Shown here piece by piece: positions 7,051 through 44,175 of a DNA stretch of 46,946 bases (position 1 is its first letter; the number at the start of each line of letters is the position of its first letter). This DNA is from Psammoneis japonica (lineage: Eukaryota): positions 1-46,946 of the forward strand of contig QPGO01000350.1 in assembly GCA_008632985.1 (NCBI GenBank), written 5' to 3'. A model generated the notes under the pieces. That model was not told where the DNA came from and did no database searches. It was given only the letters and a program-made list of their open reading frames with translations. Both the position numbers and the translations under genes were made by a program.

Positions 7051-7139
7051 TCTTTCTTGTGCCTAGAGTGCCTACCCTTCCTCTATCTCAACGCTTTTAT
7101 CGCAACCCCAATACCATCTTCTAAAGTCCAAGTATAGGT

Positions 7140-11856: not shown

Positions 11857-11860
<4 letters not shown>

Positions 11861-11916
<56 letters not shown>
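11861..11916. repeat. (GA)28 microsatellite
   Basis: Perfect GA dinucleotide run. Confidence 0.97.
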
Positions 11917-11918
<2 letters not shown>

Positions 11919-20689: not shown

Positions 20690-21318
20690 ATGATGGCACA
20701 AACAACAACATTGCTTCTTTGTGATCATCATCTGTCTGCAACACCATGTCTGCCAAACAACTTGAATTCATGTTGGAGAAAGTGTGTGTTGGCAAGAGTC
20801 AGGACTTTTGGGACAAGCAGCTCCAACTCAGAAAGTGTGCGAGAAGCACAAGTTGTTGTCACCCTGCTGTGGTTGTCTGGCACAATGTCTTTTCTGATGA
20901 AGATCCTTGTCTTGAGAAGATCCGCACCTTGGCTGAGAAGGATCACAAGTTTTGTCACAGTCCAGAGGATGATGAGCAGCTTTGTGTCAAGTTCTGCAAA
21001 TGCAGTGATTCCTTGTCACCAGAAAATCAAAAATTCATTGGCCAGGCCCTTGTAGAATGTGTTGATCTCCCATTGATGCAGAAGGTGCTTCTTGGCAAGT
21101 GCTTTCACTTGCTCAGTGAGGATGAAAAGGTTTCACTTCATGGGTTGGCAAACAAGGAAATTGGTTTCATGCTGGCATTCTTGCCATGGCAGCATGATGG
21201 CATGAAGAACAAAGAAAAGATGAGCCTTGTGGAGGCACAGATCTTGTGCATCGATTGCTTTGCAATTGATGAACACAAAGCAAAACACACAATGAAGCCT
21301 CACATGTTTGATGATTGA
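20690..21318 (+). pseudogene. TpA-mutated copy A of an unknown repeat-borne protein gene
   Basis: ORF 20746-21318 aligns along its length with ORF 31433-32185(-), e.g. FWDKQ..ARST.CCHPAV.VWHN.FSDED..LEKIR.LAEKD. Confidence 0.7.
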
Positions 21319-22279
21319 ACAACTTGTGTCCCAAGTTTGATGGTTGAAGACCACGCAACGCAAGTCTGGTGATTGAAGACCACAGTGCAAGTTTGATGAT
21401 TGAAGAACTTGTTGCAAGTTGGGTGATCAAAAAATGGCAGAGTTTCAATTCTTGGTGATTCCAATTTGTGTTGTGGACATGATCGATTCACCATTGACTG
21501 GGTGATGCAAGTTTGATCCATGACTGCTGGCTCACAGCATCCTGTCAACATGCTGGGGAGGTGGTTGTGTTGTTTGTGCACCCCAAGCAAGTGATGTGCT
21601 GCACTTGGTGTCTTTGGTGGAATGACAAAAAAGTGGGGAGCAGGCAGAGAAGGGAGAGGAGAAAAAGGAAATGTGGAGAAACAGTTCATGTGCTGCATGT
21701 CCAAGATGTGTGTGTTGTTGCTTCTCTCTTCTTTTTGTTTCAATGCAAGAAAAGAGGGTTTTTGGAGCACCATCGGTTGTGCAATCTGATGATGAAAAAG
21801 ATGGAAAAGTCACAGAAACTAGAAACTGAACCACGCTCATTTGAAGAAAAAGGTCGTTGCACTCAATTGATGGTGCACGCACATGCCCAGATGACCCCAT
21901 TCCCGGTTGCCCTCTCACCTCTCCCTGTTCTGCTGTGGCTCCATCTGCCAGCTTTGCGATGATGCTTTCTCTCCTCCCTTCCACTCTTCTGCTCCTTTGC
22001 TGCCTCTGGCAGCATGGCCAGGTGGCTGGCAGGTGTGGTGGATGTCAGTGCATGGACAGGTGTGCCGCAGCAATTGAGCGACTTTGTGCTCATGAGTGTC
22101 TTGCAGCACACAGATGTTGGAGCATGTTGACAGCCAGATCACTTGAAAGAAAGACATGATCATCAGCAGGAGAGCAAGATGAGCAAGGAACAAAAAATTT
22201 GAAACAGGCCCTTTTGAGACATTTTCAACACCAGGTGGGTGTGACATTTGGCCCAAAGTTTGACTTTGTCATCATGCAC

Positions 22280-25200: not shown

Positions 25201-28200
25201 AGCCTTGCAGTGGCCTGGAGCATCATGGGATGAACAAGCAGACAGTTGTTTGCTGCGATGGGACGTTGTGCAATCCGCCAAGGAAACAGCAATGAGAATC
25301 TCGTCATTGCAAGGGCAAAGACAGGGTTCGCCGTCTTTGGCAAACATCCACTCAATCATGTGAAAGGAGCACTTTGGCAGTTCAAGTTCGTGGCCTGCAG
25401 CATTCAACAAATTGCACCAAAGCTGATTGTCCTCCTGCATCTTGAAGGCGAGGTCCAACATGCAAGGTTGTGGGTGGGCACGGAAATCATTCACCTTTTT
25501 GGAAGTGTCATTGATGCAACCTTGGTCACAAATCTGTGGAGACAAGGAGCAGTCCGGAGTCTTGAAAAAAGCCCCGTGAGCATGCTGGTCAAAAAGCTGA
25601 AACAGGCCATTGCATGTCTGGTTCCAATGGAACGGAGAGTTGCTGCTGCCTTGTGTGCCATAAATTGGGAATTCATCAGAGTGAGAGCATGACGTTGGTG
25701 ACAGGCCAAGAACCGTTTTCAGCCAGCACTGAGTCTTGTGCAAGGTGGAGCCAGCCACTTGTGTAACTTCTTTGGGCACGCCGTTGCTGCGGCTCTCTAA
25801 TGTGGCCAAAGCTGGAACATTCCCATCATGGCATGATGTGCAATCATCATTGCTGTGGATGGCGGACTTGCGCGAAGCTCTGCTTGTTTCTAACATGAGC
25901 TCTTCAAGGTGCGATGGTGTGTTGGCATTCAAGAAAGGTCAAGTGCCGTAAATGCCAGGGTTGCAAAGACGTCGATGCTCCACATTTTGTGCCAAGGACC
26001 TCCACTCAAAGCTTGCAACAAGCTGGAAATCGGCTTCATAGATGTGGATGACCCACAGACGATGAAACTTGTTGTTGCCAGGCTCTTTGAAAATCATGAC
26101 ATTCACAATGTCTTTCCACCGGTCGAATGAATGCCCCCATTTTGGGCACAGTCAATGGATTTAATCTGATCTGAACAAGCAACTGTTGAACTTGATCCAA
26201 GGCTTCTCGTTCCTCTGCAATGGATCCATCAGAATCTACGGAGTCAGGGCAATGATGAGGAGTGCACATGACCTTCCAGTGTCCGAGGTGCAGACCAGAG
26301 AAAAGCAACGTGGACGTTGACTCTTTCCAAGATTCAATCTTTCCTTCCAAATCAGAGCCAGTGAGAAAAGCTGAGACTGACACTGGAGACCAGCGTTTCA
26401 GGTGTCGAACAAACCAAGAAGTGGTGTCGTTCAAGGTGAAGGTGTCATGTTTGCCGTCGAGAATGAGATCTGCCATTGTCGTGTCCCCTTTGCACCCCAA
26501 GTCCGCCAACAATGGAGGAACAGCAGGAGGGGTGCCATGTGCTTGTCCAAAATGTCTTTGATTGTGTTGGCAAAGTGCCGTGGCCACATCCTCCGGGGCA
26601 TCAACAATGACCCAGTCATGGCATTTCTTAGGATGAGCTGCCGGATTTCTGGGAACTTGGATGCCACTGATTCCAGTCTCTCTCTCTGCAAAGAGCTTTG
26701 TCATTTCTTTGGCTTTGTGGATGTTTTGCATGACAGTGGCCTGTCATCTAGATGACTGGGATCCCTCCAAGTCAAGGGCCGCTGTCTTTTCAGAAATCTT
26801 GCATTCACGGTGGACAGTGCTGGCTGCAGTGGTTTGTTTGCACTGGGCATGAGCTGTGCGCAGAGCTTCTTGACATTCATGAAGCATGTCAGGCATCATA
26901 AAAGAGTCTTGTAAAGTGTCGCCCATGATGCAGATTTGAGACACACAGTCCAATTGAGTCCGCATCACAGAGACCACATGGGACAAAATGTGTGCTCAAT
27001 GTCGAAGGTCGGCAAGTGCTGCTGACCACTCAGGTTCCCAGTGATGATGACAATGCTCAGCAGAAGCAAGCAAAAACTGCAGGAGGTCTCTGTCAAGGCA
27101 TTCTGCCAATGCATGATCTGGCACCTGGAGTCTGAGGAGCTTGACAGATCTTTCCAATGTGGATCTGCTCTCTGACATGGGGCCCATGGCCTGCAGTTGA
27201 GTGGTCACTTGGGGTTTGGAAGAAGCCTGGACATCTCTGAAGCAAGCCTTGGGGAGATCAACCGTTGGATTGCCAAACAACTCAACAGTGTCAAAATTGA
27301 CAAAACAGACACAACGGGTTCCAGTCCTGGGTGGGACTTTTTGTGACATTTGCCCCGTAGAATTCTACGTGCGAGCTCTGTAGTTCGTACTCTGGTCAAT
27401 GGACACATTCATCTTCGACATGAAATGAACGGCCAAGTTTGCAGCACATGTGTCTCTGTTCGTACTCGCAGTTTTGGACAATGCGCCTGCCCTGCGCCAT
27501 TCTTAAGACACTCGAGAATGGCGTAGAAGAAAAAAATGTTAAAAGTTGTTGAATGGATCGCCTGACAATTGTGCTGTGAAATGATGCAAAATTTCGCCAA
27601 AATCACGTAGAAATGTACGTGCGCGACATACGACGCGATTCAAAAAACTGTCGATGTCACAGTTCAGCAGCACGAGGTCCCACCTAGACCTGGAACGCGT
27701 CACACGATGGTCAGAAGCAATGTGACAACCAAATGCCTCACATCCACCTGAACGAGCTGCTGACAGGGCCCCAGGCGATGCTAAAATGCAGTCCAAGCAT
27801 TTGGTGCCTCGAGTGCATGTTGTAAAGTCGGTGTCACCAATCAGATCAAAAAGGGCATCAGAGAGATTAAAACGCTGAGCCAAAGAAGCCAAAGAGTCAA
27901 TGTCCAATGTGAAGTCTGTGTTGAAATCCCCAAAGATGACAACCTCTTGATTGGAGTCAGCCACAAAATCCTGTGAGAGACAAGACAGGTCCATGCAAAA
28001 GGTTTTCCGGGGGCCCAGTTGTGGATGACCTTGTTGGCGGAGCAGGGGTTCTGCCGGGCTGACATTGGTTTTTGGTGCAGACATGGCAGCAGGATGCAAA
28101 AACTTGACTTGGTGGCCATTCCAACCATCAAAGACTTGAGCAGACCATCATCTGAGAGGGCCCAACTCTTGAGAATGGCACCTGCAGAAACCAAGTTGCA

Positions 28201-30600
28201 CAAAAGAAGGGCGGTGCCACCTGATTTGTGTTGAGTTGCAAAGGTGGCAGAGCTGCTAGAAAAGGCCCCTTGACCATGAAGGAGAGGGTTGGTCACTGTG
28301 GACCTGCACACAGAGAGAATGTTGCACTGAGCGGCATCCAGGCACACTTCGGAAACACCCACAATGTCAGCCTGAGTTTCGTTTGCGACTTCACAACACT
28401 CATTAATGTCGCCACCATGTTCATCTAATTTGCAACCGCTGGTGTTGAGTGTGTGCAACCTGGTGTGATGTGAAAGCTTGGATTGCAGTGCATCACCAAT
28501 GGGTTCATTTGTCTTTAAATTGGAGAGATTTGTGTGTCGCTCTGGAGATGGCTGGAAGCATCAACCGTCTGGCAGAGATTGCCAGGATGCAGTGACATTG
28601 TCGGCAGAAGATGTGCTGCTCATGTTTGGGCCATGCTCCTCCAAAGAGAAGGCTGGGGCTCAGAGCACTGCAGGGAAGGAGGATCACAGTGAAAAGAAAA
28701 ACGGCGACAGCGGGATGCACAACAGAATGTGTGTTCAAGGGACGGCGACGAAGCTTGGCCAGTGATGTCAGGAGGACGCCCACGGGTTTGAGGAGGTGGA
28801 GGCGGCAAAGTCCAACTCCCTTCTAAAAATGCTGTTCCTTGTCGTCTGCTGGGTGCTCAGGAGTCTGCATGTCATTCGGTTGCTTCCGTGTCGAAGAGGG
28901 AGGCATCGGAGGGGCCAACGGCACTTGTGGGAGCTGTGTGATTTGATTCATTTGCACTTGCATTTGTTCCTGCATGGATTGATTCTGTTCCTGTAGATCT
29001 GACAATTGTTGGGAGCACTGAGCATGCATGTGAGCTGTGTCCTTGGCGTGTTGGTCTTTGAGGTCCTGAACAGCTTGCAGCTTGGTCAGTGCAGGTTTGA
29101 ACCTGTGAAATGGTTCGCTGCACTTCGGCCATCTGAACAGATGTGAGAGAGTAGCTTGAGCATGCGAAATTGGGGTTGGACTCATGCCGGAGATTCCCAA
29201 GTGACCAAAGGATGGAGACAAAGGCAAAGGGTGGGAGGTGCAGACATTCAGAGGAACAGCTGATCCAGGAACAGTGCCATGACCCAGCATGCCAGTGCAC
29301 CCACATCCTTGTCCTGCAAATGAATTGGGAGAGCATGCAGATCGAGAAGTGTTGGCATCAGTCAATGGAGACACATCAGAAAAGGTCAAGGATTCTAAGC
29401 TGCAGATGCTGGCTGACACGATTGATTTGCTGGCATCAGACACTTCATCCAAAATTCCCGACACTTGAGGATGATCTTCAAAGGGGGGGGGGGGGGAGGA
29501 TGTGATTCTTTTGGAATGTTGGGAATCTGATCCAAGACACATGTCAAGATTGTGGCCTTGGTCTGCTTGAAACAAAGTCAATGCACCAGGACATCGCAAC
29601 AGCCAGTGCTGGATGCAGAATTGGATGAGAAAATGTCAATCACGTGTTGGACAGCCTTGATGTGATTTTCCAAGAAAAACATCACATCCGGAGAAGTGCA
29701 CAGCAGTGGCACCATGCAGGCATTGTCATTGCGTTTGGCTTGAGTGATTGGCCATGAGAATGTGCGTTGCGAGCTTGTTGGATGCGCACAGCAAAGTCTT
29801 GGCTGCTTTGCGACAATCCTCCTGTTGAACTTCAACAGCACATGTCACAGCATGGATTGGTGCTGAGGTTTTGTTGTTGTCAGCATGGATGGTCACAGGA
29901 ACCAGCCCAAATTGAGGCATTTTTGTCTTGAGGTCGCCAAGGTCTTTCATCAACAATTTCGTGGCAATGTCTGCCAGAGTGTGCTTCGATGGGGTGGCAA
30001 CATGATGTGCCGGGGTTGTGGTGTCGACCGCCAACTCGTCCCAGCAGCAACGTTTCATGCCTGCATTGTTCGATTTGAGAATGCTCTGAATGTGAGGATG
30101 GGAACAGATGTTGCGCAGAGAAACTTTTGTGAGGATACGATGACATGAGTGATGAGTGACCGGGTGAAATTCTCCGCTGCGAGCAGACGAAATCCGAAAA
30201 TGGCACTCGTGCTTGAGAGCCACAACCCATTCAGCAACATTGGCATCAGCAGCTCTCTTGTTGTGATTGTCCAGAATTGTCATGTTGGTCTTGCAAGTGA
30301 ACAAAAGCTGGCTTAAGACTTGGAGATGGGCTGTGACGAGTGTCATGGGCTTGCACATTGCTGCTGCAAAACGAAGTGCAATCTCTTCAAACTGCTGCTC
30401 TTTTGGCTTGGACAAAGGTTCGAGAGAGGCTTGATTGACTGTTGCATTGTCAGCCATGTTGGCATCATGGGTGTGACAATCTGCAGTTGTGTCAACAGGA
30501 AACAAGAACAATTTTTGGCATGACAAACAACATGTTCTGTGCTGACTGGTGCTCTGCACATCAGCCACCATGTTTCATCTTGTGTTTTGTGCTGTGCAAA
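22280..30600 (-). mobile_element. Degenerate non-LTR retrotransposon (Ambal/L1-like; ORF1 plus APE-RT-RNase H-zinc knuckle ORF2), interrupted by a MITE
   Basis: APE motifs GVSE, IFGDFN, LDCIL(LDYIL) and SDHR at 28.4-27.7 kb. RT IYGTQGSSNSP..W and GCINDT (GFVDD-like) at ~25.6 kb. RNase H GAFGW, SSHRAEAHG, WAKGHQD, LNVCTDKLA. Knuckle CIHC..DHILWC. ORF1 remnants at 28.8-30.6 kb. Many frameshifts. Confidence 0.85.
27313..27701. mobile_element. MITE copy 1 (389 bp, ~25-bp TIRs, 4-bp TSD ACAC)
   Basis: TIRs AACGGGTTCCAGTCCTGGGTGGGAC / GTCCCACCTAGACCTGGAACGCGTC; ACAC at 27309-12 and 27702-05. Removing the element and one TSD restores the LINE frame SDHRVCFVNFD. Confidence 0.88.
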
Positions 30601-30699
30601 CTCTGCCCAATCAACATGGTTGCCTGCGTTGAACTGCATCATGACTGACCAACAAAAGCAACAAAAAATGGATTCAAACATGCCATGGCATGTTGTGCC

Positions 30700-31105
30700 C
30701 AGTTTGTTTGTTGTGGTTGGCTGGCTGGCTGTTGATCTCCATGGGGCCAGGCAGAGGGGGCAGATGTGTGCAAGAGGGGGGCCACGGGGAGCTCCTGCTG
30801 GTGCACAAATTTGCGCTTGTGTCTGAAGCACATGTGCAACAAAGTGGCACTCATGGCAATTCCCTGGGAACCCACGTTCCCTGCCACAAGGCAAAAAGTT
30901 CATGGAAAACCAAACTGGGGCTCTTGGGGGAACATGCTTTGCAACCTCTGCCCCTTCTGCGGCAGATGCAAGGGGCTTTGGCGTGTGTTGCTGATTGGGG
31001 AGCACACAGGACAAAACAACTAGAGGCACATTCTTCCACTCGCACACAGCTCAAAGATGTGCATCATGCAAAAAATCACCACAGTCTGATGAGTTTGCCA
31101 ATGTG
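30700..31105 (+). repeat. ~400-bp segment duplicated at 33790-34607 (that copy contains the MITE)
   Basis: GCTGTTGATCTCCATGGGGCCAGGCAGAG...CAGTCTGATGAGTTTGCCAATGTG is present in both copies. Confidence 0.88.
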
Positions 31106-31178
31106 CCAGAGTGGTTGAACACGTTCATTTCACAACATTTTGAGATTTTATGTTAAAAAATTGCACAAAGCAGATGTT

Positions 31179-31208
31179 GCCACTGTGTGCAAGTTGGTCT
31201 GAGGAGCA
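31179..31208 (+). pseudogene. Truncated, mutated 5' fragment of tRNA-Leu(TAA)
   Basis: GCCACTGTGTGCAAGTTGGTCTGAGGAGCA versus intact GCCACTATGTCCGAGTTGGTCTAAGGAGCA. Both share the upstream TTTCACAACA..AAAATTGCA..GATGTT. Confidence 0.8.
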
Positions 31209-31432
31209 TGGCACAGAAAAAAGATCTGAGTTGATGGCTTTGTCACCAACTTTGTGATGGGCTCATTGGCGTTGACAGAAACACTCTGGTGCAGTGAGCT
31301 GATGGTCGCACTAAGACCAAGCTTGTGTCATTGAGACAGAGGTGAATCATTTGCATCCACAACACTGACAAGATTCATTGACAATTGAATCTCAGTCATT
31401 CTTCAATCATCAAACTGCACACATTGCATTCT

Positions 31433-32060
31433 TTAATCATCAAACATGCAAGGCTCCATTGGGCAGGTTGGGTGTTTTGCTTCATGTTCATCCATCTTGA
31501 AGTGATCAACACACGGGATCTTGCCCTTGACAAAGCTCATGTTTTTGCAGTTCTTCACATTTCTGCACCCCTGGAAGAACCCCAGCATGAAACCAATTTT
31601 TTTGTCCACCTGTTCATGAAGCACAACCTTGTTGGTCTCATTGAGCAAGTGAAGACGCTTGCCCAGAAGCACCTTCTGAGTCAATGCAAGATCAGTGCAT
31701 TCTGCAAGGGCCTTGAAAATAAATTCTTGATCTTCCGGCACCAAGTTGTCACCATGTTTATAGAACTTGATGCAAATCTGCTCATCATCCTCCAGATGAC
31801 AACAAAACTTGCAATCCTTCTCAGCCAAGATGCGGATCTTCTCAAGATGAGAATCTTCATCAGAAAAGAGGTTGTGCCAGACAATCACAGCAGGGTGGCA
31901 ACAAGTTGTGCTTCTCGCATGCTTTCCAAGTTGGAATTGCTTGTCCCAGAAATCCTTGCTCTTGCCATGATGGGCTTTTGCCAACACAAATTTGAGTTGT
32001 TTGGCAGACATGGTGTTGCAGACAGATGATGTGTTGCAAAGAAGCAATGTTGTTTGTGCC
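31433..32060 (-). pseudogene. TpA-mutated copy B of the same unknown repeat-borne gene
   Basis: Inverted homologue of 20690-21318. Confidence 0.7.
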
Positions 32061-33804
32061 CCATGTTGTGTTGTTTGCTGATCCTCTTTGGCAAGATCCA
32101 AAGAATCTGTCTTGCATTCTGGAATTTTGTCATCCAAGGGCTGTCCAACTTGAGTCAACAACAACCAGGAAGGCAAGCCACTCACTCAACCAGAGTTGTG
32201 AATGTTGTTGTGGTGTTTGCAGCAAGAAAATCACCTCTGAAGATGGGGTTGGGTCAGACAGGCAAGTTGTTGTTCTTTGATGCTTTCATGTTCTCTGTGT
32301 GATGTTCTCATTCTTCTCAATTCCTCTTCTCCATCTCTCTCAGGTGCAATGACTGCCATGTGAAGCTTCTGGAAAAGACATTTTTTGTGCATCATCTGGA
32401 AAGCAAGCACATGGGCATGGACACCAACAAAGCTGTGTTGGCCATTCAAACTGCAATTGTTGAAGGGCACAATGTCATCAAAGTTGCTGGAGCCATTGAC
32501 GGCAACCACAAGAAAGACGACATTGACCCTGATTTTCCCTGTGACCGCAAGACCCAGCCGTGCACTTGCAAAGATGTGGTTGGTCACAAATGTTGTTTCA
32601 AGGAGATTCTCTTGAGTGAAATGAAGTGTTCGTCATCACCACTGACCATCATCACAAAACCATTCTTGAGCAAGACACAAGACAATCGCCGCTCAAACAA
32701 GAAATTCCTTGAGTTGTGTGAGAGCCACAAAGATGCTGTGAAAAAGAAATTGGATCTGTTGGATCCCACCGCTTTGGAAGAGTTCACCACTCCTCTTTGC
32801 AATCCGGTGCACAGCGGTTGTGCATTTGACCATCTGGGATTCCTTCACTCTGTTCTTCCTCATTGGAAGAGCAAGGCCAGCACCATCATGCCAGATGATG
32901 TCAAGCCAGAGAGTCCTCACTTGCAGGAGCTTGCAAGCAGGTGTGCCGAGCAGGCAAAAATTGGTTGGGGAAGAAGGGCAAGCTTTGCAGACAGATTCTG
33001 CTCTTGATGGCAGATGTGTGGCATTGTTCAACAAAGCAGAGTGCAGCACAAATCAACTGGACAAATTTTGGCTGGCAGAGTGTTGTCACCAATGCCCAGA
33101 TCAATTTGCACATGCCGCACCATGGCACTGCAGAGAAAATGGGAAATCATTCTTGCCACCCACGTCCCACACAATGACTGTCGTCTCTCTGCTTTCTCCG
33201 GCAAGCGACATGCTGTCACACAAGAATGACATCACACCGCTTCTTTCCCAATGCATCATTGTTTCACTTGATTGAGAACCCGTTCAAGGCATTTGCACAA
33301 TGAGCTGATGGATGGCAAGATGATTGGACCATCTGAATTTTGTTTTGCACTGGAAACTTTGTGCGCGCTGCACGCATCATCGCCAAAAATCGGCGACATG
33401 ATGGTGGTGCGTTGTTGTGACAACAGCCATGACAGCAATGTGCCCCAGAGTCTTTTGTCATTGTGGACATTTGGTTCATTGAGTTTGAGAATGTGCTCAG
33501 TCATGAAAGCCCCCGAGAGCAACCTCCATTTGAAAGCAAAACGTCACACCAATGACGAGCTCTGTTTTGGACCTGTCACTGTCATGCATTCATTGTTGAA
33601 CAATTGAGACTTTGTCAGGGGGGCTTTCTTTGCATGTTCGTGTTTTAAATGGTGCAATTGATCATCATGATGAGTGCCCATTGCAAAGTTGTCCTGCAAG
33701 AGCTTGAGAAAAATGTCATTGTCATCGTCGGCGTCGATGGCAATTTGTCGCACAAATCGCAACAAAAGCATGACTGTCGTCTGTCCATTTTGTTTGTTGT
33801 GGTT

Positions 33805-34198
33805 GACACGCTCCAGGTCCAGGTGGGACCTCATGCTGCTGATCTGTGACATTGACAGTTTTTTGAATCTCGTCGCATGTTGTGCGCGCAGATTTCTGCG
33901 TGATTTTTTGACATTTTGTGTCATTTCATGGCACACTTGTTGAGCGATCCGTCCAACAACTTTTGACATTTTTTGTTGCAGCACGATTCTACAATGTCTT
34001 AAGAATCGCACAGGGCAGGTGAATTTGCAGAAACGTCAAGTGGCGCAAGAGGCAAAACTGTGCCACAAACTTGGCCGTTTGTTTGATGTTGAAGACAAGT
34101 GTGTCCACCAGCTAAATTCTTGTGCTGCGGAGCTCGCACGCAGAATTCTGCGGGCCCAATCATGTCACACCGAGTCCCACCCAGGGCTGGAGTGCGTC
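33805..34198. mobile_element. MITE copy 2 (394 bp, inverted relative to copy 1, 4-bp TSD GGTT)
   Basis: TIRs GACACGCTCCAGGTCCAGGTGGGAC / GTCCCACCCAGGGCTGGAGTGCGTC; GGTT at 33801-04 and 34199-202. The empty site is visible in the paralogous segment at ~30715. Confidence 0.88.
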
Positions 34199-34949
34199 GG
34201 TTGGCCAGCTGTTGATCTCCATGGGGCCAGGCAGAGAGGGCAGAGGTGTGCAAGAGGGGGGCATGGGGAGCTCCTGCTGGTGCACAAATTTGCGCTTGTG
34301 TCCAAAGCGCATGTGCGACAAAGTGGCGTTCATGGGGATTCCCTGGGAACCCACATTCCCTGCCATCAAGCAAAAAAATTGTGGAAGACCAAGCTGAGGC
34401 TCTCAGGGGCACACGCTTTGTGACCTCTGCCCTTGACGGCAGGTGCAGGAGGCTTTGGTGTGCATTGCTGATGGGGGAGCACACAGGACAAATCAGCTGG
34501 AGGCACATTCTTCCACTCGCACACAGCTCAATTTGAGGCACATTGAGTCAGCTGCAAAACATGTGCTTCGCGCAAAAAATCGCCAGTCTGATGAGTTTGC
34601 CAATGTGACCGCAGAGTCATCACGCAGAAATTGTGTGCGTGGAGCAGCACCAAGACAAGTCTGTCTGTCCTGAGTGAATTTTAACTTTGCGAAAAATGGA
34701 CTTGACTGTTTTCTGATCAGGCGCATTTTTCTTCAACACATTTGCAAAAATGCGCCTGACAGTCAAGTCCATTTCTGCACAAATTGTGTGAAAATAACAG
34801 TTTCAGTGCAAAAACGTGTAGATTCTACAGGCCTCATTAACTTGTGCGTTCAACGTCACGGGTCATTTTCAAGAGATTCCCATTGCATTATTTCACAACA
34901 TGAGCTTTTCTTGAGTTTAAGGACTCAAAAATTGCATTTCTTGGATGTT

Positions 34950-35035
34950 GCCACTATGTCCGAGTTGGTCTAAGGAGCAGCACTTAAGATGCTGTGAACA
35001 TTCAGTTCGCGTGGGTTCGAACCCCACTGGTGGCA
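34950..35035 (+). tRNA. tRNA-Leu(TAA)
   Basis: Acceptor GCCACTA/TGGTGGC-A; anticodon arm CAGCA-CTTAAGA-TGCTG; long variable arm TGAAC-ATTCA-GTTCG; T-arm GTGGG-TTCGAAC-CCCAC; TTTT terminator. Confidence 0.93.
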
Positions 35036-35069
35036 CTTTTGCACAAAAGCACATTGAAGCATGGTCAGC

Positions 35070-35227
35070 CCCGCGTTTATCCTAACATTATAGTGGCATT
35101 TGAATAAGAATATTTATAAGAGTTAATTTTTGAATACAAAAATTATTCTTTGCATTCACACCCGATCGCCGATCGCGCACGAAAACGAGAACACCAAGCA
35201 CCGCGATCGAAGCACGACGATGACGAA
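35070..35227 (-). repeat. Conserved AT-rich element terminus, copy 2
   Basis: Reverse-complement match to 12494-12626 (CCGCGTTTATCCTAA...GCACCGCGATCGAAGCACGACGATGACG). Confidence 0.8.
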
Positions 35228-36169
35228 AATCGTCGATGTTTCTCAAAAACGTGGCATGTCGTGCACAAACTTTTCATGTGTGTAAGATCTTTGATGCATG
35301 AAGAACATAAAAAAAATGAGAATTGGTGCACGGACTGCCTCCATCACAGACTTGTGGCTTGCTGTTTTTCGCCACGGTGAAGCACAGTGAAGCTCAGGAA
35401 AAATGATGTAAAACACGAGCCATTCGGCCAAACTCGAGCTTAAAAAAGCAGCAACCGGCCACCATTGAGATCGCGTCACAGTGTCATTGGAAAGCTCATG
35501 GTGCAAAATCCAACGGATGCGGCATTGGTTGAAATGGGGTTCTGCATTGGCCGAAATGGGGCTCTGCATTTTGACTTTTTTTTCGTCCAGATTTTTCAAT
35601 GGCAAAAAAACTTTGCCACTTTTCATGCACCTCTGGTGAGCGCTCTCTCTGGCAAGCAACAGCTGTGCACAAGAAAACATTGTGCCTTTTGGGGGGGCTT
35701 TTTGGGGCGGGGCGCATGACACTGCACTGCTTTTGTTGCACAAACTGGCTCAGAGGGATGATGTGCCAATCTCTGCACTCATGCCACCAAAGAGAGACAA
35801 GATTTGTCATGTGGGTTTTGTGGCCCATGGGTGGCAAGAACAATTTCCAATTTTCCACTCTTTCCACCATGGCGCAGCATGTGCAAATGTCAAGATGTGC
35901 GACAGACGAGATTGACCAATCTCTTGGGTGCGCACATGCCTTTGCCTTGCAATTGACTTGGCTGCTGGTGACATCAGTGCTGTTGCAGTCCAGCCAGCGC
36001 ACAACACTCCACCAGCCAAAATTTGTCCGGCTGGTTTGTGGCTGCTGTGCTCCAGCAAATGACACTGTGAAGCTGCCATCAAGGGGGCAGAGTTTGTGGT
36101 GCTTGCCGCCAGCTGGCTCACCTGCTGCTTGGACTTTGCACACACTTGCTCAAGAGCTCCTGCAACAAA

Positions 36170-38427
36170 GGACTGGCGGACAACGCCACAGAGCTCGCAT
36201 CGTCAAGGCCATCGAAGACCACGAATGGAAAGTGAACGGCAATCCCGAGCTCACCAAGTTCGTCTGCTCTGTCAACAACGACGAATGCGAGGAAGTCCTT
36301 GCCTGCAACGACATCATGAATCACATTGAGCAAGAAGACGAAGACACTGCTGTTTGGAAATTCCGATGCATCGTGTCACACGAAGGACCTCTGAAGCCTC
36401 ATGACCCAACCTGGAAAGGCTCAAGCTGCAACATCATGCTTGAATGGGAAAGTGGGGAGATCACGTCCGAGCCTCTTGCCATCATCGCCAAGGACGACCC
36501 CGTCACCTGCGCCGTCTGTGCACGAGAGAACGGACTTCTCGACACGGATGGCTGGAAGCAGTTCCGCACCATCGCGAGGCGCCAAAAGAAGCCATTTTGC
36601 ATGGCCAACCAAGCCAAGCTTCGCTCCTTCCGCACTGCACCTCGCTGCAAGTGCGGATGCGAAGTTCCCCGGAACTGCAAACACGCCATGTCACTAGACG
36701 AGCGCAATGGCAACCGCAAATGGGGAGACGCAACTAATCTCAAGATGGACCAACTCGAGGAATGCGAAGTCTTCCATGACTGCGGGCCCTTCGAGTCTTC
36801 CACTCCTCCTGAGGGACACAAGAAGATCCGAGTGCACCTGGTGCATGACGTGAAACACGACGGTCGCCACAAGGCACGACTCGCAGCCGATGGGCACCTC
36901 ACGGACGTACCTGTCGACAGTGTCCACTCCGGAGCAGTCTCCCTCCGTGGCCTTCGGCTGATGATTTTCCTGGCTGAACTCAACGAGTTGGAGACATGGG
37001 CCACCGACATTGGCAATGCCTGCCTTGAAGCCACCACCAAGGAGAAGCTCTACATTGCAGCCGGACCCGAATTTGGCAAACTCAAAGGACACATCCTTGT
37101 CATCCACAAGGCCCTGTGTGGACTGCGCAGCTCCGGTCTCCGCTGGCACGAGCGCTTCGCCGACTGCCTGCAAGCTGAAGGCTTCTTCCCCTGCCACGCC
37201 GAACCCGACATTTGGATGCGCAGGAACGGCGACCACTGTGAACACATTGCCGTTTGTGTGGATGACCTCGCCATTGCTGTGAAGGACCCTCAATCTTTCG
37301 TCGATGCTCTCACGGAAAAGTGCAAGTTCAAGCTCAAGGGTGCGGGACCCATTGAGTTCCATCTGGGTTGCGACTTTTCCCGGGATCCCGACGGCACCTT
37401 GTGCCTGTCTCCGCGCAAGTACATCGAGCGCATGGTCGACAGCTGCACCCAACTGTTTGGGGAGAAACCCACCACCAACGCCCTGTCACCTCTGGAGAAG
37501 GGCGACCACCCCGAACTGGACACTTCCGAACTGCTGGAGCCCGATGGCATTCACAAGTTCCAGTCCCTTGTTGGTTCACTCCAATGGGCAGTGTCTCTTG
37601 GTCGAATTGACATCACCACGGCCGTCATGTCACTCTCTAGCTTCCGAGCTGCGCCCCGTCAAGGCCACTTGGATCGTGCCAAACGCGTCTGTGGGCACCT
37701 CTCCAAGATGCGACACGGCGCTCTCCGCGTTCGCATGGAAGAGCCTGACCATTCGGATCTCCCTGCTCCGGCCTGTGAATGGATGCATTCTGTGTGCGGC
37801 GAAGCAGAAGAGATGATCCCGAAGGACGCTCCACTGCCCCTTGGCAAGTTCGTCACTGCCACCCACTACGTCGATGCAAACTTGCACCATTGCATGCTCA
37901 CCGGATGCTCTGTCATGGGAATGCTCCACTTCCTCAACAAATTCCCGGCTGATTGGTTCTCTAAGAAGCAAGCCACCATGGAGACTGCGACCTGCGGGTC
38001 TGAATTTGTTGCCGCAAGGACTTGTGTCGAGCAGATTGTTGACCTGCGCATCACCCTGCGCTGCCTTGGCGTCCCGATCCGCAATGTCAGTTACATGTTC
38101 GGTGACAACAAGTCGGTTGTAGACAGTGCCACCATCCCGCACTCCAAGTTACACAAGCGACACACCGCACTGTCGTTCCACCATGTGCGTGAGGCAATCG
38201 CCTCTGGTTGCCTTGAGTTCCACTTCATCGAAGGCTCCCGCAACCCTGCTGACATTCTCAGCAAGCATTGGGGTTGCTCCCAAATCTGGGACCTTCTCCG
38301 CCCCCTCATGTTCTGGAACTTCATTCCATCCGAAGTCGAATCTGTTTCTGTGACTCCTCAAGCAAACTGGGGAGTGACAGGATTTGAACAGGATTTGGGT
38401 GCGCGCGAAATGTCGCGCGTTGTTTAG
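36170..38427 (+). mobile_element. Ty1/Copia (CoDi-like) pol fragment: RT (RVT_2) plus RNase H, with conserved Tyr converted to Cys/His; likely inactive
   Basis: KIRVHLVHDVKHDGRHKARL, WATDIGNACLEA, KALCGLRSSG, IAVCVDDL, FHLGCDF, DWFSKKQATMETATCGSEF, MFGDNKSVV, NPADILSKHWG. Possible PPT GGGGAG followed by TG at 38369-38376. No gag or integrase core was seen. Confidence 0.93.
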
Positions 38428-40494
38428 TTTACCGCGCACAGTTTTGTGTGCTTTAGTTCCGCGCGTTCGCGCACGATGTAGTTTGCTTTCGAGCCACAAG
38501 GCACAAGAATGACAACAGCAGCCCGATTGTGCCGACTCACACGTCTTTCGGCTCCTGCAACGGTCTCTGAGCAGAGACTCATCTGCCATTTAGACAGCAG
38601 CAAGGAGTTGTTGTTTGAATTCTTGCCATTTGCTTTCAATTTCCATCACAAGCTCTGGCACAGATGTCACCTTTCTCGAATGGTGCAATCACGGTTCTTC
38701 TTGCCTGCCCATTTCAACTGCTTCTCTCATTGATGTGCCTTTGTTTTGTCATCATGACCAATCTCATGCATTGGAAGGAAGAGGCAGCTGGCATTGAGCC
38801 CTTTTGGCTCGTGTTTGCCAATCAATTTTTTTCAGCATTTTTCTTTTTCCTCATGGGCGAAGTTCCAGGACAAGTTTCAGCGCAAATTCCACATGTTTGT
38901 GAGAGTCACATCAGATGGTCAACTTGCCAAACTGTCAGCTGCTTTCTGTCCACACCTCTCAGGCTGCAATGTGCACAATGCAGATCATTGCAGCATTGTC
39001 AACAATGCCCAACATTGTCAAGAGAATGACTGTTGACTTCGGCGCACAAAATTAAATTCGCCGAATGCATCGAACATGAGGCCACGAATTCTGTCAAAGT
39101 GCCACTTAAAAACCGAGCTCCCAAAAGATTGGCCAGTTCTGAAAGTGATGGCCAGAATGTCCAATGATTGAAAATGATCATCTTGATTGTTGCGTGCCCC
39201 ACTTTTGTGGGTTCCCCCAGATTTTCGGCACTCCAAAACAAAATCACGTGAATCAATTGTTGCTCACATCTGAAAATGCTCCATTCAACACATTTGTGAT
39301 GTGAGCAAGCAAATTTCTGCCGATGGAGATTTGCTCAAGTCTGGTGGTTGAAGGGTCAAGTTTTCTGCCTCGTGTGGCGAACAATCATCCTCCATTGTTG
39401 CTGCTCCCAGAAGTCTGAATTTGAGACTGGCTCAGCCCGGGTTGTTGGTCATTGCTTTGTGTCGTGCTCTTTCTCATGTCGAAACATTTCCAGACTGCCT
39501 GTTGTGCCTTTGCAATTGCAGCATCAAGCGATTTCACTTTGATGTCATTTTGCTGGTCCTGTTTTTGCTGCTGCCAGCTGTTTCCGGCGGGTGCCGCAGA
39601 AATGTGGCATCAATCTCGACTCATTGTCACATGTCCCTGCTGCATTACATTGATGCACTGGGAGTGTGGGCCAGCTTGTTGCTGGAATTGTAGAGCGGAA
39701 GCGAAACAGCACTTTACATTGTGTTTTATCTTGCCGGAAACAGAAGCAAGATGACATTTCAACATTGACCGTGTGTGTGCATTGACCGTGCGTGTGTCCT
39801 GACGAGCGCATCTTCCGGATTCGCGATCCCGAATCCCGATTCTTCCCAATGACTCCAGACTCCATTGCTGATCCAGATTGGCAGATCGGAGAAACATTCA
39901 AATTCACCATTCTTGTAAAGGAGGAGCCGCAATGCTTTGCTTTGATTTCAGTGGCAAAGCTGCAATTGTTATGATCTCCTTTGCCTCACAGAATGCTCTC
40001 TATTTCTTCTTCACATTCAGTTGTATTCTCGTTTTCCGTGACACCCACTCGGTTCCATCACACATGTTCCCTTTTGCTTTTGCCACTGTTGCACGTCCTT
40101 TCTCTCTAGAGGGAGATGGAGTATCTAGTTGATGCCGTGTGAACCCTAGCGTATCATGAAGGTGTCACTTGTTGTCCCTTACACCTCAATACATTCATCG
40201 CTTTTGAAACGACAACACTGACATGATGCATTGTGTGCCGGCCTTTTGCACTCGACAAACAGGTACGGATGCTGCGGTTCCTGGTGCTCTGAATAGTTTC
40301 CTGGATGAGGCGGAGCTGGAGATGCATCTCTGGACCACTGGACAGTGTTGTGGTCCCCTATAGCAAAGCGAGTTTTGCAAATTCACGCTGGCTGACGCGG
40401 TCTAAAAAAGGCAAAGTTCAGTAGGCTGACGCAGTAGCGTTTCATAACATCCTTCAGAGGCTTCTTATAATATGAAGATAAATTCTGGTCTCGT

Positions 40495-41147: not shown

Positions 41148-41440
41148 TTTAAATCACAATGTTGCGTTTCTTTTTAAACAAAAGACTTCAAAACAAGGGC
41201 AGCGAAGGCGGGATGCTTCCTATGTTACTTGCACTGCGAGTGACGACGGTAATGAGGCATGCGATGGTGATGAGTGAGGTGGTGCGTGGTGAATGACAGT
41301 ATGTTGTATTCCGCGTTCCCGCGGTCTGTGCGCGGCGGTGGCCCCGCTTCCGGGCGTGGCGCGAAGCGAGATGAAAGCAACCAAACGCGCACGGCGCCAC
41401 AACTTCTCACATGGCGCCCTTCATCTCGCTCGAAAAGCCT

Positions 41441-41443
<3 letters not shown>

Positions 41444-41474
<31 letters not shown>
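41444..41474. repeat. (CT)15 microsatellite at the edge of a TpA-depleted block
   Basis: Perfect CT run. Confidence 0.95.
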
Positions 41475-41476
<2 letters not shown>

Positions 41477-41479
41477 ACC

Positions 41480-43920
41480 CTCCAGAGATCCAGTTCTGAG
41501 AGCAGAGTTTGTCAACATGGGTTCCATCCATTTTCACGGACTTGAACAGAGGAAACCCACTGGCACTCACGACCACACAGTGCACGCTGTGTTCACCAAC
41601 AAGAACAACAAAAAGAAAGCATGTTGCTCTGCACAAAAGCACGCCCAAAGGCAGTCGACCACACCAGCTTTGTTGGGCAATGTGTGTGCAGCTGCAATGT
41701 CAACAATTCCCATGAAACCTTTGGCACAAAAAGTCAAATGAGAAATTCTGCCCTCCCACTCGGTGCGCACCCAATGTGCAGGAAACACTGTGGGCTGCAC
41801 TTTCCCAAGATGCTGGGTTTCAATGCCAGACCACATGCACCACAGACTTTGCAGCTTGCTCACACTGAAAAGAACAGCTTCCACCACCGGAGCTGTGCTG
41901 CCATTTGGCACTTGTCATGCTGGAAGTTTTGCCAAATTTGCCTGACTGGAGCACCTCTTGTTTTGAGCATGACAGGATGCTCAGAGCTGTGTGGGTGTGT
42001 GCTGTGTGCAGTGTGCGGTGCGACAGGTCTGACTCTGTGCAAAAAGCTTCTCCTTGATGCAACTTCAGTGTGGCGGTGCACAAGGTGTTGATTGATGGCA
42101 ACTTGGCACTCTGTGCAAGAAACAGCTTTAAAGCTGACAGCTTTTTCTGTTGCCAGCACCCCTGTCCTTGTCTGGAAGTTTCATGAGTGCAGAGCTTCCT
42201 GTCAGTGTGGTGTGCTGCTGCTGGCTCTCCCATTGTGATGAAAACTTCAGAAATGAAGTGACAAGAGGGGTGAAGCCAGGGATTCCTTTGAATTGGCATG
42301 CTTGGAGCTGTTGCACTTTGGCTTGAATCTGCTGCCAAAACAAGACTGTTCAAAAGTTTGAGAGCTGTGGGCTGCAGTGCTTGTTGTCAACATTGGTGCT
42401 GGCTGGTGTCACCAAATGTGGACAATGAGGTGCAGAGCATTGCACATGGGACAGTTTGTGCTTGTTGTGTTCTCATCTGTTTGGCCTTGCAGCACGCGCA
42501 ACACTCATGACAACCATGGTGCCAACTGTGGCATGGCTTGCCCGTGGACTCCACAGAAAATGAGAAAACATTTGTGCATGGCTTGGCACAGCAATGAATG
42601 ATTGCAACTCAGCTTGTTCTCCTTTTTTGACAACACTCAGATTTGTTGCCACAGAAGCAAACAAGTTGCCACCAGGTCAAAGACCAGCACTTGCTTCAAA
42701 AATGCAAAGAAGCCTTTCTTTTGTGCACAGGGAGGTTGTTGACAGCACTGGCAGACACTGTGTTTGCAGGCTGTGACTCAAGGAAATGCCAGAAAGTGAA
42801 GACAGCAAGTCTTTTTTAAACACCCAAAGCTGCAGCTGGGGCATGTCTGAAAATGAACCATCTGAGAGTGAAGGCACAACAGAGATCACTGGTGGAGAGA
42901 CATCTCCAGCAAATGAGCGCTGAGGAAAATGCAACATGAGAGAAGTCTGCAACAGTCTCTTTTGGGCAGGAACTTTGGGCTCACCATCTCACTGAGCTGA
43001 CACTTTGGTCTGAGCTGCACGCTCCTGGCAGCAGGCAAGGCAGGCCAACACCACAACATGACCCAGCACAGATGACAAAGGTCAAACAAGCACTGCAGAG
43101 AGGATCTGTGAGAAATGCCAGAAATGCATGCTTGCCTCAGCAAGAGGCAGGCAAGAAGCTGCCTTCTGTGCATCTGGGGGCAACAAGAACTTTGGTGCAG
43201 TGGGCAGATCCCCAAGGTGTGAAACAAAAAGCAAAATTTCTTCAAGCACTTTCTTGTCAGAGCCTGTCTGCACAAGTGAAAAACAGAAAATGAGAATCAA
43301 GGGCATGTGTGAGACACTCACTCATTCCTCACAATTGCCACACCAGTGCAGGGCAAAAACCAATTGCAACACCTCCAATTGGGCACTGTGCAGCACCAGA
43401 AGCAGCTTTCTTCCTCCAAATCTTTTGCTCCACTCTGTCAAAACTTTGCCTCCTTGGCAATGCCAACAGCCAGTTCCAGACAAACCTCATCCACTGCAGC
43501 CTTGCCATCTTTGGCAGCAATCAATTCTGTTTGTTTTGTTCCAGTGTCTTTCACAAGCAGGCTGTGGAATCAGTGTGTGAAAATTTGAAGAGAGAGCACA
43601 TTGGGCAAAAAGCAACTGGGGAGGTGAAACGCCAATTGCGCACTGCGGTCATCAGTGAATTTGATCAAACTTGGCCCCAACAAGGCATGGTGCGGTCTCA
43701 CAATGAAAGTGAAGAAGCAGGTGTCACGAGGTGATTCGAATGGCAGATTCATTGTTTTGGTTTTCAAATGGCTGCACCCATGTTGCCGCAAAGTGTGGAC
43801 ACCTCATGCAATGTTGGAATTCATCGAACGACTTGTTGGAGAGTTTGAGTGAGATCAAGGAAGCAACTGTCCTGTCTTGCACCAGTTCCACCAATCAAAT
43901 GGCGAATGGGCCACAATGGG
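41480..43920. mobile_element. Degenerate TpA-depleted repeat block of unidentified family
   Basis: Almost no TA until ~43927, with Cys/His-rich spurious ORFs. No recognisable motif. Confidence 0.5.
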
Positions 43921-44175
43921 CGGACTCTAGTGTCTTGGATGTACTGCCAGTTGATTGTTGTGCACTTGTTGTACGGTACTCTAGCTTCGGTAGGACAAGG
44001 AAACTCATTAGGGAAAGCGGTGGACGTCACTGCCCTCAGCAGTGTAAAAGTAAGCTACAGTATCTTCTAGCTAGGTAATTAGATAAGTTGCTACCAATGA
44101 ATGCTAAACAATTATAGACGAACGGCTTGGTAGCCACAAGTCGTTACCCCGGTTAGTGCATTACACTAGAAGCAA

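Follow-up and report, generated by a model that had tools for sequence, protein, structure and literature searches.

The stretch of DNA described here (the window) comprises positions 1 to 46,946 of contig QPGO01000350.1 from Psammoneis japonica (assembly GCA_008632985.1). It is a mosaic. Blocks that are depleted in the dinucleotide TpA, or in both TpA and CpG, alternate with blocks of normal composition that carry ordinary-looking genes (Table 1). One depleted block contains a remnant of a Ty1/Copia retrotransposon and another a remnant of an element resembling a long interspersed nuclear element (LINE). The Copia remnant keeps an open reading frame (ORF) and has lost most of its conserved tyrosines to cysteine or histidine. 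The best overall explanation is probably a TpA-directed hypermutation of transposable element (TE) DNA that spares the host genes.

Structure of the Copia remnant

The remnant lies within an ORF of 942 codons on the forward strand (35599-38427). RVT_2, a reverse transcriptase (RT) domain of the Ty1/Copia type, is the sole Pfam domain of this ORF; it scores 81 bits in the window copy and 105 bits in intact relatives. A database search in which 7999 candidates were scored returned 1315 relatives at E<=0.001. The best 120 of these are mostly 57-67% identical to the ORF across ~95% of the query. In tblastn with the relatives P0011, P0022 and P0004 as queries a single segment of 62-64% identity was obtained, starting at 36109 or 36157 and ending at 38340 or 38394; the segment 36157-38394 corresponds to residues 873-1618 of P0011. 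The homologous part is therefore free of frameshifts and stops, as the preliminary description of this element had said, and the frame is intact, with no indels, over 750 codons.

That description also held the element to be disabled by missense changes alone, which does not stand, as the copy is truncated at ~36177 and everything upstream of the RT is gone. The N-terminal 730-880 residues of three long relatives have zero matches in the whole window, even at E 10, and gag, protease and integrase were not found upstream of the RT in the window copy. Pfam names no integrase in the intact relatives either. Other copies of the family continue upstream of 36177 with different sequence, as seen from loose ends of contigs in run X1 (described below), and the window copy is therefore 5'-truncated. 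Beyond RVT_2, where an RNase H would be expected, the rest of the reading frame can be aligned to the relatives along its full length; Pfam RNase H models match neither the window copy nor the intact relatives.

The first ~190 codons of the 942-codon ORF are flanking DNA that happens to be stop-poor. The flank at 35441-36176 has a TA observed/expected ratio (o/e) of 0.02 and a CG o/e of 0.36, and the three depth bins across 35436-36137 are 118, 59.6 and 59.6. At the other end, a 2-3-fold rise in depth across 38244-38711 points to a probable 3' long terminal repeat (LTR); depth drops to ~75 past ~38,711, and loose ends of run X1 contigs lie at 38626-38643. Neither a 5' LTR nor a direct-repeat partner of the putative 3' LTR was found in the window. 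The Copia copy has a TA o/e of 0.11, a CG o/e of 0.85-0.87 and a GC fraction of 0.565. The GC of the fragment (0.56-0.58) is the maximum of the window, which has ~0.48 as a whole, and is what a run of A:T>G:C changes would yield.

Conserved tyrosines and their replacement

The window ORF was aligned with 118 relatives (P0004-P0121); P0002 and P0003, which are internally duplicated, were left out. Tyr is found in at least 70% of the 118 relatives at 26 columns, and the window copy has Y at 3 of these, C at 16, H at 4, F at 2 and W at 1. The relatives have Tyr in 2736 of the 3056 non-gap cells of the same columns (of all 3068 cells: Y 2736, F 175, H 55, C 12, other 78, gap 12). Conserved residues of other types are kept by the window copy at 401 of 485 columns, or 62-100% depending on the type (Fisher p 4.7e-14 against Tyr). 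Its amino acid composition is shifted in the same way, with Y 0.5%, C 4.5% and H 5.2% in the fragment vs Y 4.3-5.0%, C 0.7-1.1% and H 3.2-4.4% in four relatives. Four Tyr codons are left among 749, all of them TAC and none TAT. The Tyr depletion of the Copia copy is thereby confirmed as real and far above chance.

The preliminary description had quoted nine altered Copia motifs and counted four remaining tyrosines in ~730 residues. All nine changes are present in the translation of 35599-38427, with Tyr in the relatives at each, and residues 200-942 hold exactly four Tyr. It had further ascribed the Tyr losses to TpA transitions, which proved to dominate the changes at conserved sites. At columns conserved in at least 90% of relatives (residues 200 onward), 21 of the 23 differences are TpA>TpG/CpA (16: 11 TA>TG and 5 TA>CA) or CpG>TpG/CpA (5: 2 CG>TG and 3 CG>CA), and the other 2 are transversions. 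With the threshold at 70% the differences number 63, namely 20 TA>TG, 6 TA>CA, 4 CG>TG, 6 CG>CA, 3 other transitions, 13 transversions and 11 multi-step changes. Sense-strand T>C changes are also present in the ORF, as Y>H at 4-5 sites and V>A at 2.

Whether the relatives share the Cys and His residues bears directly on this reading. Cys occurs 12 times among the relatives' residues at the Tyr columns, and just one of these occurrences belongs to 116 of the 118 together. The homologous DNA of metagenome relatives has a TA o/e of 0.61-0.82 in 25 of 26 cases and 0.34 in the 26th (L001), and the ancestral state was therefore TA-bearing. The Copia copy is most likely a dead member of a very abundant family; TpA retained elsewhere in the family has gone from this copy, chiefly in the Tyr codons, including that of YVDD, through changes of TAY to TGY (Cys) or CAY (His), where Y is a pyrimidine.

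Extent of the depletion

The depletion is not specific to the Copia element. The preliminary description treated a single element; its account of the signature holds for that element and is incomplete for the locus, since the signature spans about two thirds of the window, includes the LINE-like element and is accompanied by loss of CpG. A conservative depleted set of 30,253 bp has 97 TA, and a normal set of 13,449 bp has 494, or 3.2 vs 36.7 per kb; CG counts are 612 and 620. Depleted 1-kb windows have a TA o/e of 0.00-0.13 together with TG and CA o/e of 1.6-2.0. AA o/e is 1.17-1.22 everywhere, and AT and the other dinucleotides are unremarkable in these windows. Depleted blocks contain 0-3 TA per 250 bp, and TA spacing in the host-gene stretches has a mean of 24 bp, a median of 16 and a maximum of 334. 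One TA-free run, 35441-36695, spans the truncation point of the Copia element into unrelated flank.

The blocks have thus lost both self-complementary pyrimidine-purine (YR) steps, TpA and CpG, to TpG and CpA. CG o/e is 0.07-0.5 in the older depleted blocks, as is typical of CpG decay through 5-methylcytosine (5mC). This decay is merely slight in the Copia copy, and the Copia fragment alone stands out in having lost TpA (0.11) yet retained CpG (0.85). By tetranucleotide context, GCGC is not depleted (1.06 relative to normal blocks), while ACGA/TCGT and TCGA stand at 0.27-0.30; either CpG loss is context-dependent too, or the GC-rich Copia copy dominates the surviving CpG. Microsatellites of (GA)n/(TC)n, ~40 nt long, lie near the edges of two depleted blocks at 11879-11921 and 41440-41482.

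The signature of TpA loss recurs in a second, independent TE class. An ORF of 731 codons on the reverse strand (22272-24467) encodes 0 Tyr, 39 Cys and 32 His. It has no Pfam match and 1259 homologues at E<=1e-3. Five of these were scanned with Pfam: P0175 matched Exo_endo_phos (27.7 bits, cut-off 24.5), P0174 came up with RVT_1 below the cut-off (22.6 bits, cut-off 29.6), and the remaining three had no match. A weak Exo_endo_phos match also lies upstream in the element itself, at 27539-28099. Together these matches indicate a LINE-like ORF2 across ~22272-28458. The ORF keeps none of three conserved Tyr columns and two of nine conserved Arg columns, and the lost Arg residues are replaced by Q, H, C and W, the outcome expected of CpG decay. 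Within the element, 27251-27750 is a 500-bp patch of intermediate composition (5-7 TA and 12-16 CpG per 250 bp). Copies of the patch with 75-87% identity lie at other places in the window, among them inverted matches at 33804-34191; the patch may have been inserted more recently or been less exposed than its surroundings.

The depleted set consists of the Copia and LINE-like remnants and of unclassified blocks. When 39 long ORFs from depleted blocks were compared with Pfam, the only matches were a weak one to Exo_endo_phos and another, to a phage family, at chance level, and most of the depleted DNA, having no recognisable domain, stays unclassified.

Other copies of the family

Contigs of run X1, from the same study as the window's best match, were aligned to positions 34500-41500. 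The flanks, TA-free and normal alike, are covered at a depth of ~60-120 in good agreement with the window, and the contigs match 38614-39352 and 39657-41435 with 0 differences. Over the element the summed contig depth is 64,905-110,910 (36138-38243) and then 218,940-288,440 (38244-38711). The family is therefore repeated on the order of 1000-fold, with a terminal part, probably the LTR, at 2-3 times the internal depth. Three further runs of the same sample (X2-X4, 0.43-0.54 million contig letters) contain only the Copia part (36138-38711), at a depth of 14-290, which is consistent with a very high copy number.

The copies differ by transitions. Among 112 variant rows over the 7 kb there are 105 transitions and 6 transversions. 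Patterns are available for 40 of the 112 rows, and 34 of these 40 lie inside the element; 29 of the 34 sit at YR steps and 5 do not. In 12 of the 34 a TG or CA of the window faces CG in the other copies, in 6 it faces TA, in 3 the window has CG and the other copies TG or CA, and 8 make up 4 CA/TG swaps. At 37256, the middle base of the Cys codon of CVDD, the window has G, and 83% of the summed depth of the other copies has A, giving TAT. At 36925, 73% of the depth has TAC vs CAC in the window (His443). The family in the same genome thus mostly keeps Tyr codons at 37256 and 36925, and the window copy has lost both.

These data bear on the alternative that the window copy was never hypermutated and belongs to a low-TpA family, shaped by codon usage or by selection against UpA in RNA, or is a functional Cys/His variant. 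Most former TA sites are invariant among the copies, and at dispensable sites the family as a whole may be poor in TpA. The losses, however, fall on invariant residues including YVDD, where the bulk of the family depth retains TAT; a truncated copy cannot be under selection; and non-coding and LINE-like DNA show the same loss. This alternative is considered extremely unlikely.

An error of sequencing or assembly, by which a modified base at heterochromatic TpA would be systematically miscalled, is similarly improbable in the extreme. The sequence comes from one study, and the platform of both the window and run X1 is unrecorded, which leaves some room for such an error. Against it, the TA-free flanks agree without a difference with run X1 contigs, whose depth is even at ~60. 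A deterministic miscall would moreover give one reading per site, and at the same sites some copies have TG, others CA or TA. In addition the frame is intact over 750 codons, the surviving TpA obey a context rule (see below), and partly mutated relatives occur in unrelated assemblies. L001, a metagenome contig of 2759 nt with a TA o/e of 0.34, has 15 Y, 10 C and 5 H at the 33 Tyr positions of P0011; P0061 has 12 Y, 7 C and 4 H, and P0117 has 12 Y, 4 C and 4 H. On the evidence of these three the TpA process seems to occur in other environmental organisms.

Diverged repeats within the window were also compared. Six pairs in depleted blocks differ by 226 transitions and 95 transversions, and the commonest of their 95 YR patterns is TG in one copy vs CA in the other (39). 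Such a pair of letters at one site is the expected result when an ancestral TA or CG is resolved independently in the two copies.

Context rule and strand symmetry

Both strands are affected, because TG (3459) and CA (3475) are balanced in the depleted blocks and because Y>C and Y>H occur in one ORF. Processive one-strand patches of TG against CA were looked for by a runs test and none were found (z +0.96 in depleted and -1.48 in normal blocks).

The survival of TpA relative to normal blocks depends strongly on its neighbours. It is nil for ATAT (0 of 33), 0.011 for ATAC, 0.017 for ATAG and 0.026 for GTAC, and rises to 0.13 for CTAG, 0.21 for CTAA and 0.39 for TTAA. These values fit an additive half-site rule in which the A after T mutates fastest before T, then before C, G and A. 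The 16 TpA that survive in the Copia element are 7 YTAR, 2 RTAY and 7 mixed (R, purine), compared with 257, 547 and 819 in unmutated relatives (Fisher p 0.0068). Just beyond the stop codon the surviving TpA are in the contexts TTAG, TTAC and GTAG. The class YTGY+RCAR, expected from TAY>TGY, has gained 26.7 per kb vs 15.5 per kb for YCAY+RTGR.

The rule accounts for the excess of Cys over His, which had been taken as a hint of partial strand bias. The excess itself is real, at 16:4 in the tally against the relatives (binomial p 0.012) and 19:5 with a 50% threshold for the Tyr columns (p 0.0066); the strand bias is not upheld, given the balance of TG and CA, and the preference for 5'-TAY explains the ratio better. 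The Tyr codon TAY always puts its own A in the favoured context, and the route to His needs a preceding purine. A purine precedes 3 of 5 His sites vs 5 of 19 Cys sites, which is the predicted direction in small numbers.

Strand symmetry and context also bear on when the changes arose. An adenosine or adenine deaminase might act before integration, on the RNA and cDNA of the retrotransposon in each round, so that copies arrive already mutated; APOBEC3 acts likewise on C of retroviral cDNA. All targets identified in the window are retroelements, Copia and LINE-like, and the patterns are copy-specific, both of which suit this view. A 5' U preference of ADAR, noted in a preprint (10.64898/2026.01.13.699255), suits it as well. 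It is nevertheless quite unlikely. Changes from TA to TG and from TA to CA stand in the same ORF (20 and 6 non-synonymous), not the sense-strand-only A>G of an ADAR-type enzyme, and neither TG nor CA predominates across the 30 kb, so several single-stranded intermediates would need to be edited about equally. ADAR prefers G as the 3' neighbour, and the preference here is for a pyrimidine. The near-total depletion (TA o/e 0.00-0.10) moreover continues past the truncation point into single-copy flank. Lastly, in the chlorarachniophyte Bigelowiella natans, according to the same preprint, the spectrum arises de novo in resident chromosomal DNA.

A further alternative keeps the process in place on the chromosome and changes its chemistry. 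Thymine could be modified at TpA by an enzyme of the TET/JBP type to 5-hydroxymethyluracil or 5-formyluracil (5hmU/5fU), which mispair with G, or a polymerase-eta-like enzyme could introduce WA>WG changes (W, A or T) during patch repair after deamination of 5mC. Mispairing of 5fU and WA>WG activity of polymerase eta are known properties. TpA is palindromic, and a T-centred rule, 5'-RTA, fits the context data equally to the A-centred 5'-TAY; the CpG decay in the same blocks would also agree. ApA, however, is not depleted, as the WA motif would require, and in the Copia copy, poor in TpA with a CpG o/e of 0.85, repair triggered by 5mC would have to mutate many TA per event. Neither thymine modification nor patch repair is favoured by enzyme evidence, and other chemistry of this kind is unlikely.

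The open frame had been presented as noteworthy, and it loses that status once the spectrum is considered. Enumeration of every sense codon in every flanking context showed that among TA>TG, TA>CA, CG>TG and CG>CA only CGA>TGA makes a stop. TpA transitions erase TAA and TAG and never create a stop. TAA occurs at 1.49 per kb per strand in depleted and 9.6 in normal blocks, TAG at 0.94 and 8.9, and TGA at 24.4 and 18.3; the mean stop-to-stop distance is 35 codons in depleted vs 25 in normal blocks. ORFs of 170-252 codons are found in four other frames of the Copia region, and the Copia copy retains 8 in-frame CGA codons. An intact frame is expected, and is not a sign of constraint, because TpA changes make no stops and CpG decay is slight in this copy.

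Neighbouring genes and repeats

Apart from the genes for GST and TIP41, the window carries a JmjC/cupin protein, a class-3 lipase fragment and two tRNA genes, all ordinary-looking. The blocks that contain them have a TA o/e of 0.4-0.7 and a CG o/e of ~0.9-1.0. TIP41 has 52 homologues. Four have an organism name and share 35-38% identity with the window protein; all are from diatoms, namely Cylindrotheca fusiformis, C. closterium, Attheya sp. and Stephanodiscus triporus. The host is accordingly taken to be a diatom, one without a close named relative in the database.

The gene for tRNA-Leu(TAA) sits at the centre of an island of normal composition amid ~20 kb of TA-free DNA. The contig depth of the island is 1100-3200, indicating multiple copies, and the flank downstream of the island is similar to 12472-12625 read in the opposite orientation. 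The island may reflect protection of active Pol III genes, or else TE insertion to its left and right.

Among the other repeats, a tandem array at 13706-14733 in a normal block has a unit of 177/178 nt, with at least 4 copies of 63-81% identity and further units; CA/TG double differences occur among its copies too, with counts of 10 and 8 in the two comparisons made. A direct repeat of ~400 nt (30716-31105 and 34196-34607, 80% identity, 3.48 kb spacing) differs by 40 transitions vs 10 transversions, mostly at YR sites. It was considered as the LTR pair of one small element, which would have placed the changes after integration, and not used as such, since its ends, TG..CA termini and target duplication are undefinable.

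Table 1. Positions of the features in the window (1-46,946).
Feature	Position	Strand	Remarks
TpA/CpG-depleted block 1	1500..7064	.	TA-free runs up to 1301 bp
GST gene	7140-8021		Ordinary-looking gene
tRNA-Pro(CGG)	8188-8259	+	170 nt downstream of the GST ORF, before the start of block 2 (8375)
TpA/CpG-depleted block 2	8375..12250	.	From TA counts and TA-free runs
TpA/CpG-depleted block 3	19444..34682	.	Includes the LINE-like element; longest TA-free run at 31761-33646 (1885 bp)
LINE-like ORF2 remnant (APE endonuclease + RT), probably hypermutated	22272..28458	-	TA o/e 0.10, CG 0.38
Normal TpA/CpG island inside depleted DNA	34682..35441	.	760 bp, 24 TA, TA o/e 0.38, CG 1.08
tRNA-Leu(TAA)	34950-35036	+	Centre of the island; ARAGORN; Rfam 54.9 bits
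TpA-depleted block 4	35441..39999	.	Contains the Copia remnant and flanks
Spurious 5' extension of the 942-codon ORF	35599..36176	+	TA-free flank at or near single-copy depth; no homology upstream of 36109
5'-truncated Ty1/Copia pol remnant (RT + RNase H part), probably TpA-hypermutated	36177..38427	+	Ends at the surviving TAG stop, 38425-38427
CKCGCEVP motif	36646-36669	+	Tyr in relatives
RVT_2 reverse transcriptase domain	36805..37443	+	PF07727, E 1.4e-22, 81 bits, residues 403-615 of P0001
GHKKIRVHLVHD motif	36814-36849	+	Tyr in relatives
SVHSGAVS motif	36919-36942	+	Tyr in relatives
GNACLEA motif	37012-37032	+	Tyr in relatives
KALCGL motif	37108-37125	+	Tyr in relatives
CVDD, mutated YVDD motif	37255-37266	+	Codon TGT at 37255-37257; YVDD in relatives
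ATCGSEF motif	37987-38007	+	Tyr in relatives
LRCLG motif	38056-38070	+	Tyr in relatives
HWGC motif	38266-38277	+	Tyr in relatives
3' tail of the Copia element, probably part of the 3' LTR	38428..38640	+	Summed depth 2-3x the internal part
TpA/CpG-depleted block 5	41307..43928	.	From TA counts and TA-free runs
TIP41 gene	45684-46751	-	Ordinary-looking gene

Proposed mechanism

In the proposed process A:T>G:C changes, which may fall on either of the two strands and come fastest at 5'-TAY, would convert TpA in transposon-derived DNA to TpG or CpA. CpG has also been lost to TpG or CpA in these blocks, probably at a slower pace, as expected for cytosine-methylated DNA. The spectrum, the context preference, the action on both strands, the restriction to blocks and the copy-specific changes are all observed in the window and its copies. 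As in the hypermutation of B. natans, the changes are A>G/T>C transitions (16 of the 23 at the best conserved columns, and the transition excess among copies) that are restricted to TpA and confined to mobile DNA, the Copia and LINE-like remnants lying in depleted blocks and the host genes being ordinary.

The process likely acts in place on chromosomal DNA, following a mark of silent chromatin. Three considerations point this way: the near-total depletion over mixed TE types, its unbroken extension into single-copy flank, and the precedent of de novo change in B. natans. The chemistry is put forward more tentatively. Enzymatic deamination of adenine to hypoxanthine, by a deaminase related to ADAT2/TadA, is a candidate that stands somewhat short of an even chance. 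The substrate of the tRNA deaminases, A34, follows U33 and is thus in a UA context; bacterial TadA reads UAC, and early base editors derived from TadA preferred YAC. On this basis TAY would be closer to the context of the tRNA A34 deaminases than to the 3' G of ADAR.

Several points weigh against hypermutation in place as described. Most former TA sites show no alternative letter at >=10% of depth among the copies, and much of the TpA poverty of the Copia element may be family-wide and not acquired by the window copy. The evidence for an origin after integration is indirect; editing in each round of retrotransposition would also give copy-specific patterns and CA/TG swaps. Such swaps make up 22 of 95 YR patterns in five repeat pairs from normal blocks, mostly from the one 178-nt tandem array, and the swap count alone is therefore weak evidence. 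The Copia element retains CpG (o/e 0.85-0.87) and therefore does not itself tie the loss of TpA to cytosine methylation. The island at the tRNA-Leu gene may be nothing more than host DNA with TEs inserted on either side. The context baseline consists of genic blocks or distant relatives and is not the true ancestor, and in L001 the RTAY/YTAR trend is present and not significant (p 0.13). Finally, run X1 shares its study with the window's best match, so it is not independent, and its platform is unrecorded.

A wider conjecture, for which the odds are clearly against, is that diatoms, and perhaps SAR (stramenopile, alveolate and rhizarian) protists generally, run a chromatin-guided 'reverse RIP' (RIP, repeat-induced point mutation). 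A dedicated DNA adenine deaminase, derived from a tRNA A34 deaminase, would read 5'-TAY and clear TpA from silenced transposons and viral inserts, taking away Tyr codons and TAA/TAG stops and making no new stop. Resident Copia families would have purged dispensable TpA while keeping essential Tyr. Such purging would explain why most former TA sites are shared among copies and why the Tyr of YVDD is lost only in dead copies.

Significance and relation to known systems

The main interest lies in the process revealed, more than in one dead Copia copy. It can cripple proteins without any new stop codon, a kind of defence that is rarely reported, and 'missense-only' decay is the direct arithmetic outcome of its mutation spectrum. 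Because the process removes both stops and Tyr, the remains of dead TEs carry long 'zombie' ORFs, in any of the six frames, that escape Pfam and risk being mis-called as genes; the 731-codon LINE-like ORF is an example that Pfam misses. TE ages based on divergence would be inflated and local GC raised; diatom TE ages are now computed with a single nuclear mutation rate, according to a recent preprint (10.1101/2025.10.24.684338). The near-saturated diatom blocks offer far more sites for determining the sequence preference than the B. natans lines do. A natural A>G activity on double-stranded chromosomal DNA would also interest base-editing research.

In animals, hyperediting of retroelement RNA by ADAR and editing of LTR retrotransposons by APOBEC are strand-specific, giving A>G on RNA and G>A from minus-strand cDNA. 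The window resembles these systems in its context-dependent, deaminase-type transitions that inactivate retroelements and are fixed in genomic copies; it differs in that both strands are affected equally and the motif is TpA with a 3' pyrimidine. Diatom Ty1/Copia elements, named 'CoDi', were reportedly described by Maumus et al. in 2009. The window copy is like them in its RVT_2 RT, its hundreds of relatives at ~57-67% identity in aquatic metagenomes and the diatom-like host genes around it, and unlike them in having no gag, protease or integrase; no named CoDi sequence is among its matches, and the CoDi label, which comes from the preliminary description, is putative.

RIP shares with the process described here the dinucleotide-specific transitions on both strands, the targeting of repeated or mobile DNA with host genes spared, and copies that differ by transitions. 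It converts C:G to T:A mostly at CpA, so that TpA goes up, GC goes down and stops are created (PMC2621366). The window shows the opposite direction, with TpA destroyed, GC raised and stops impossible. Decay of methylated CpG is the other familiar process, and diatom TEs are CpG-methylated, according to a paper on diatom DNA methyltransferases (PMC9998398). CpG>TpG/CpA changes in the same blocks, the Arg losses of the LINE-like ORF and the five CpG-type changes of the Copia copy agree with it. It cannot explain the loss of TpA, which in the Copia copy stands at 0.11 vs 0.85 for CpG. Literature searches for TpA hypermutation turned up nothing on diatoms or any other stramenopile, and passages of the diatom TE preprint (10.1101/2025.10.24.684338) and of the methyltransferase paper (PMC9998398) do not mention it. 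The SPLASH paper (PMC9258296) proved irrelevant to the question.

The closest system is that of B. natans (Mettrop et al., 10.64898/2026.01.13.699255). TpA>TpG/CpA changes arose de novo in chromosomal viral inserts of mutation-accumulation lines, at a rate of ~6e-7 per site per generation in an insert from a nucleocytoplasmic large DNA virus (NCLDV) and in a virophage insert. The genome has 324 TpA-poor coding sequences that are enriched in RT and DDE domains, and the authors propose adenine deamination by an ADAT2-like enzyme. The likeness to the window lies in near-exclusive A>G/T>C change at TpA, in foreign or mobile DNA only, with the rest of the genome ordinary. B. natans is a rhizarian in which the process was observed in lines; here a stramenopile diatom has retrotransposon targets and the process is deduced from its end state. 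The NCLDV region has a Rho of 0.45, and the blocks of the window are near saturation at a TA o/e of 0.00-0.13. The text of the preprint nowhere uses the words CpG, context or diatom; the window shows CpG loss in the same blocks and a preference for a 3' pyrimidine. If hypermutation is the correct reading, TpA-specific A:T>G:C hypermutation of invading DNA would be on record for just two lineages, and in the diatom for the first time in a stramenopile, opening the prospect of a widespread genome defence in protists. A recently described spectrum and type of target is thus met in a different lineage, near saturation and together with a context preference and CpG decay.

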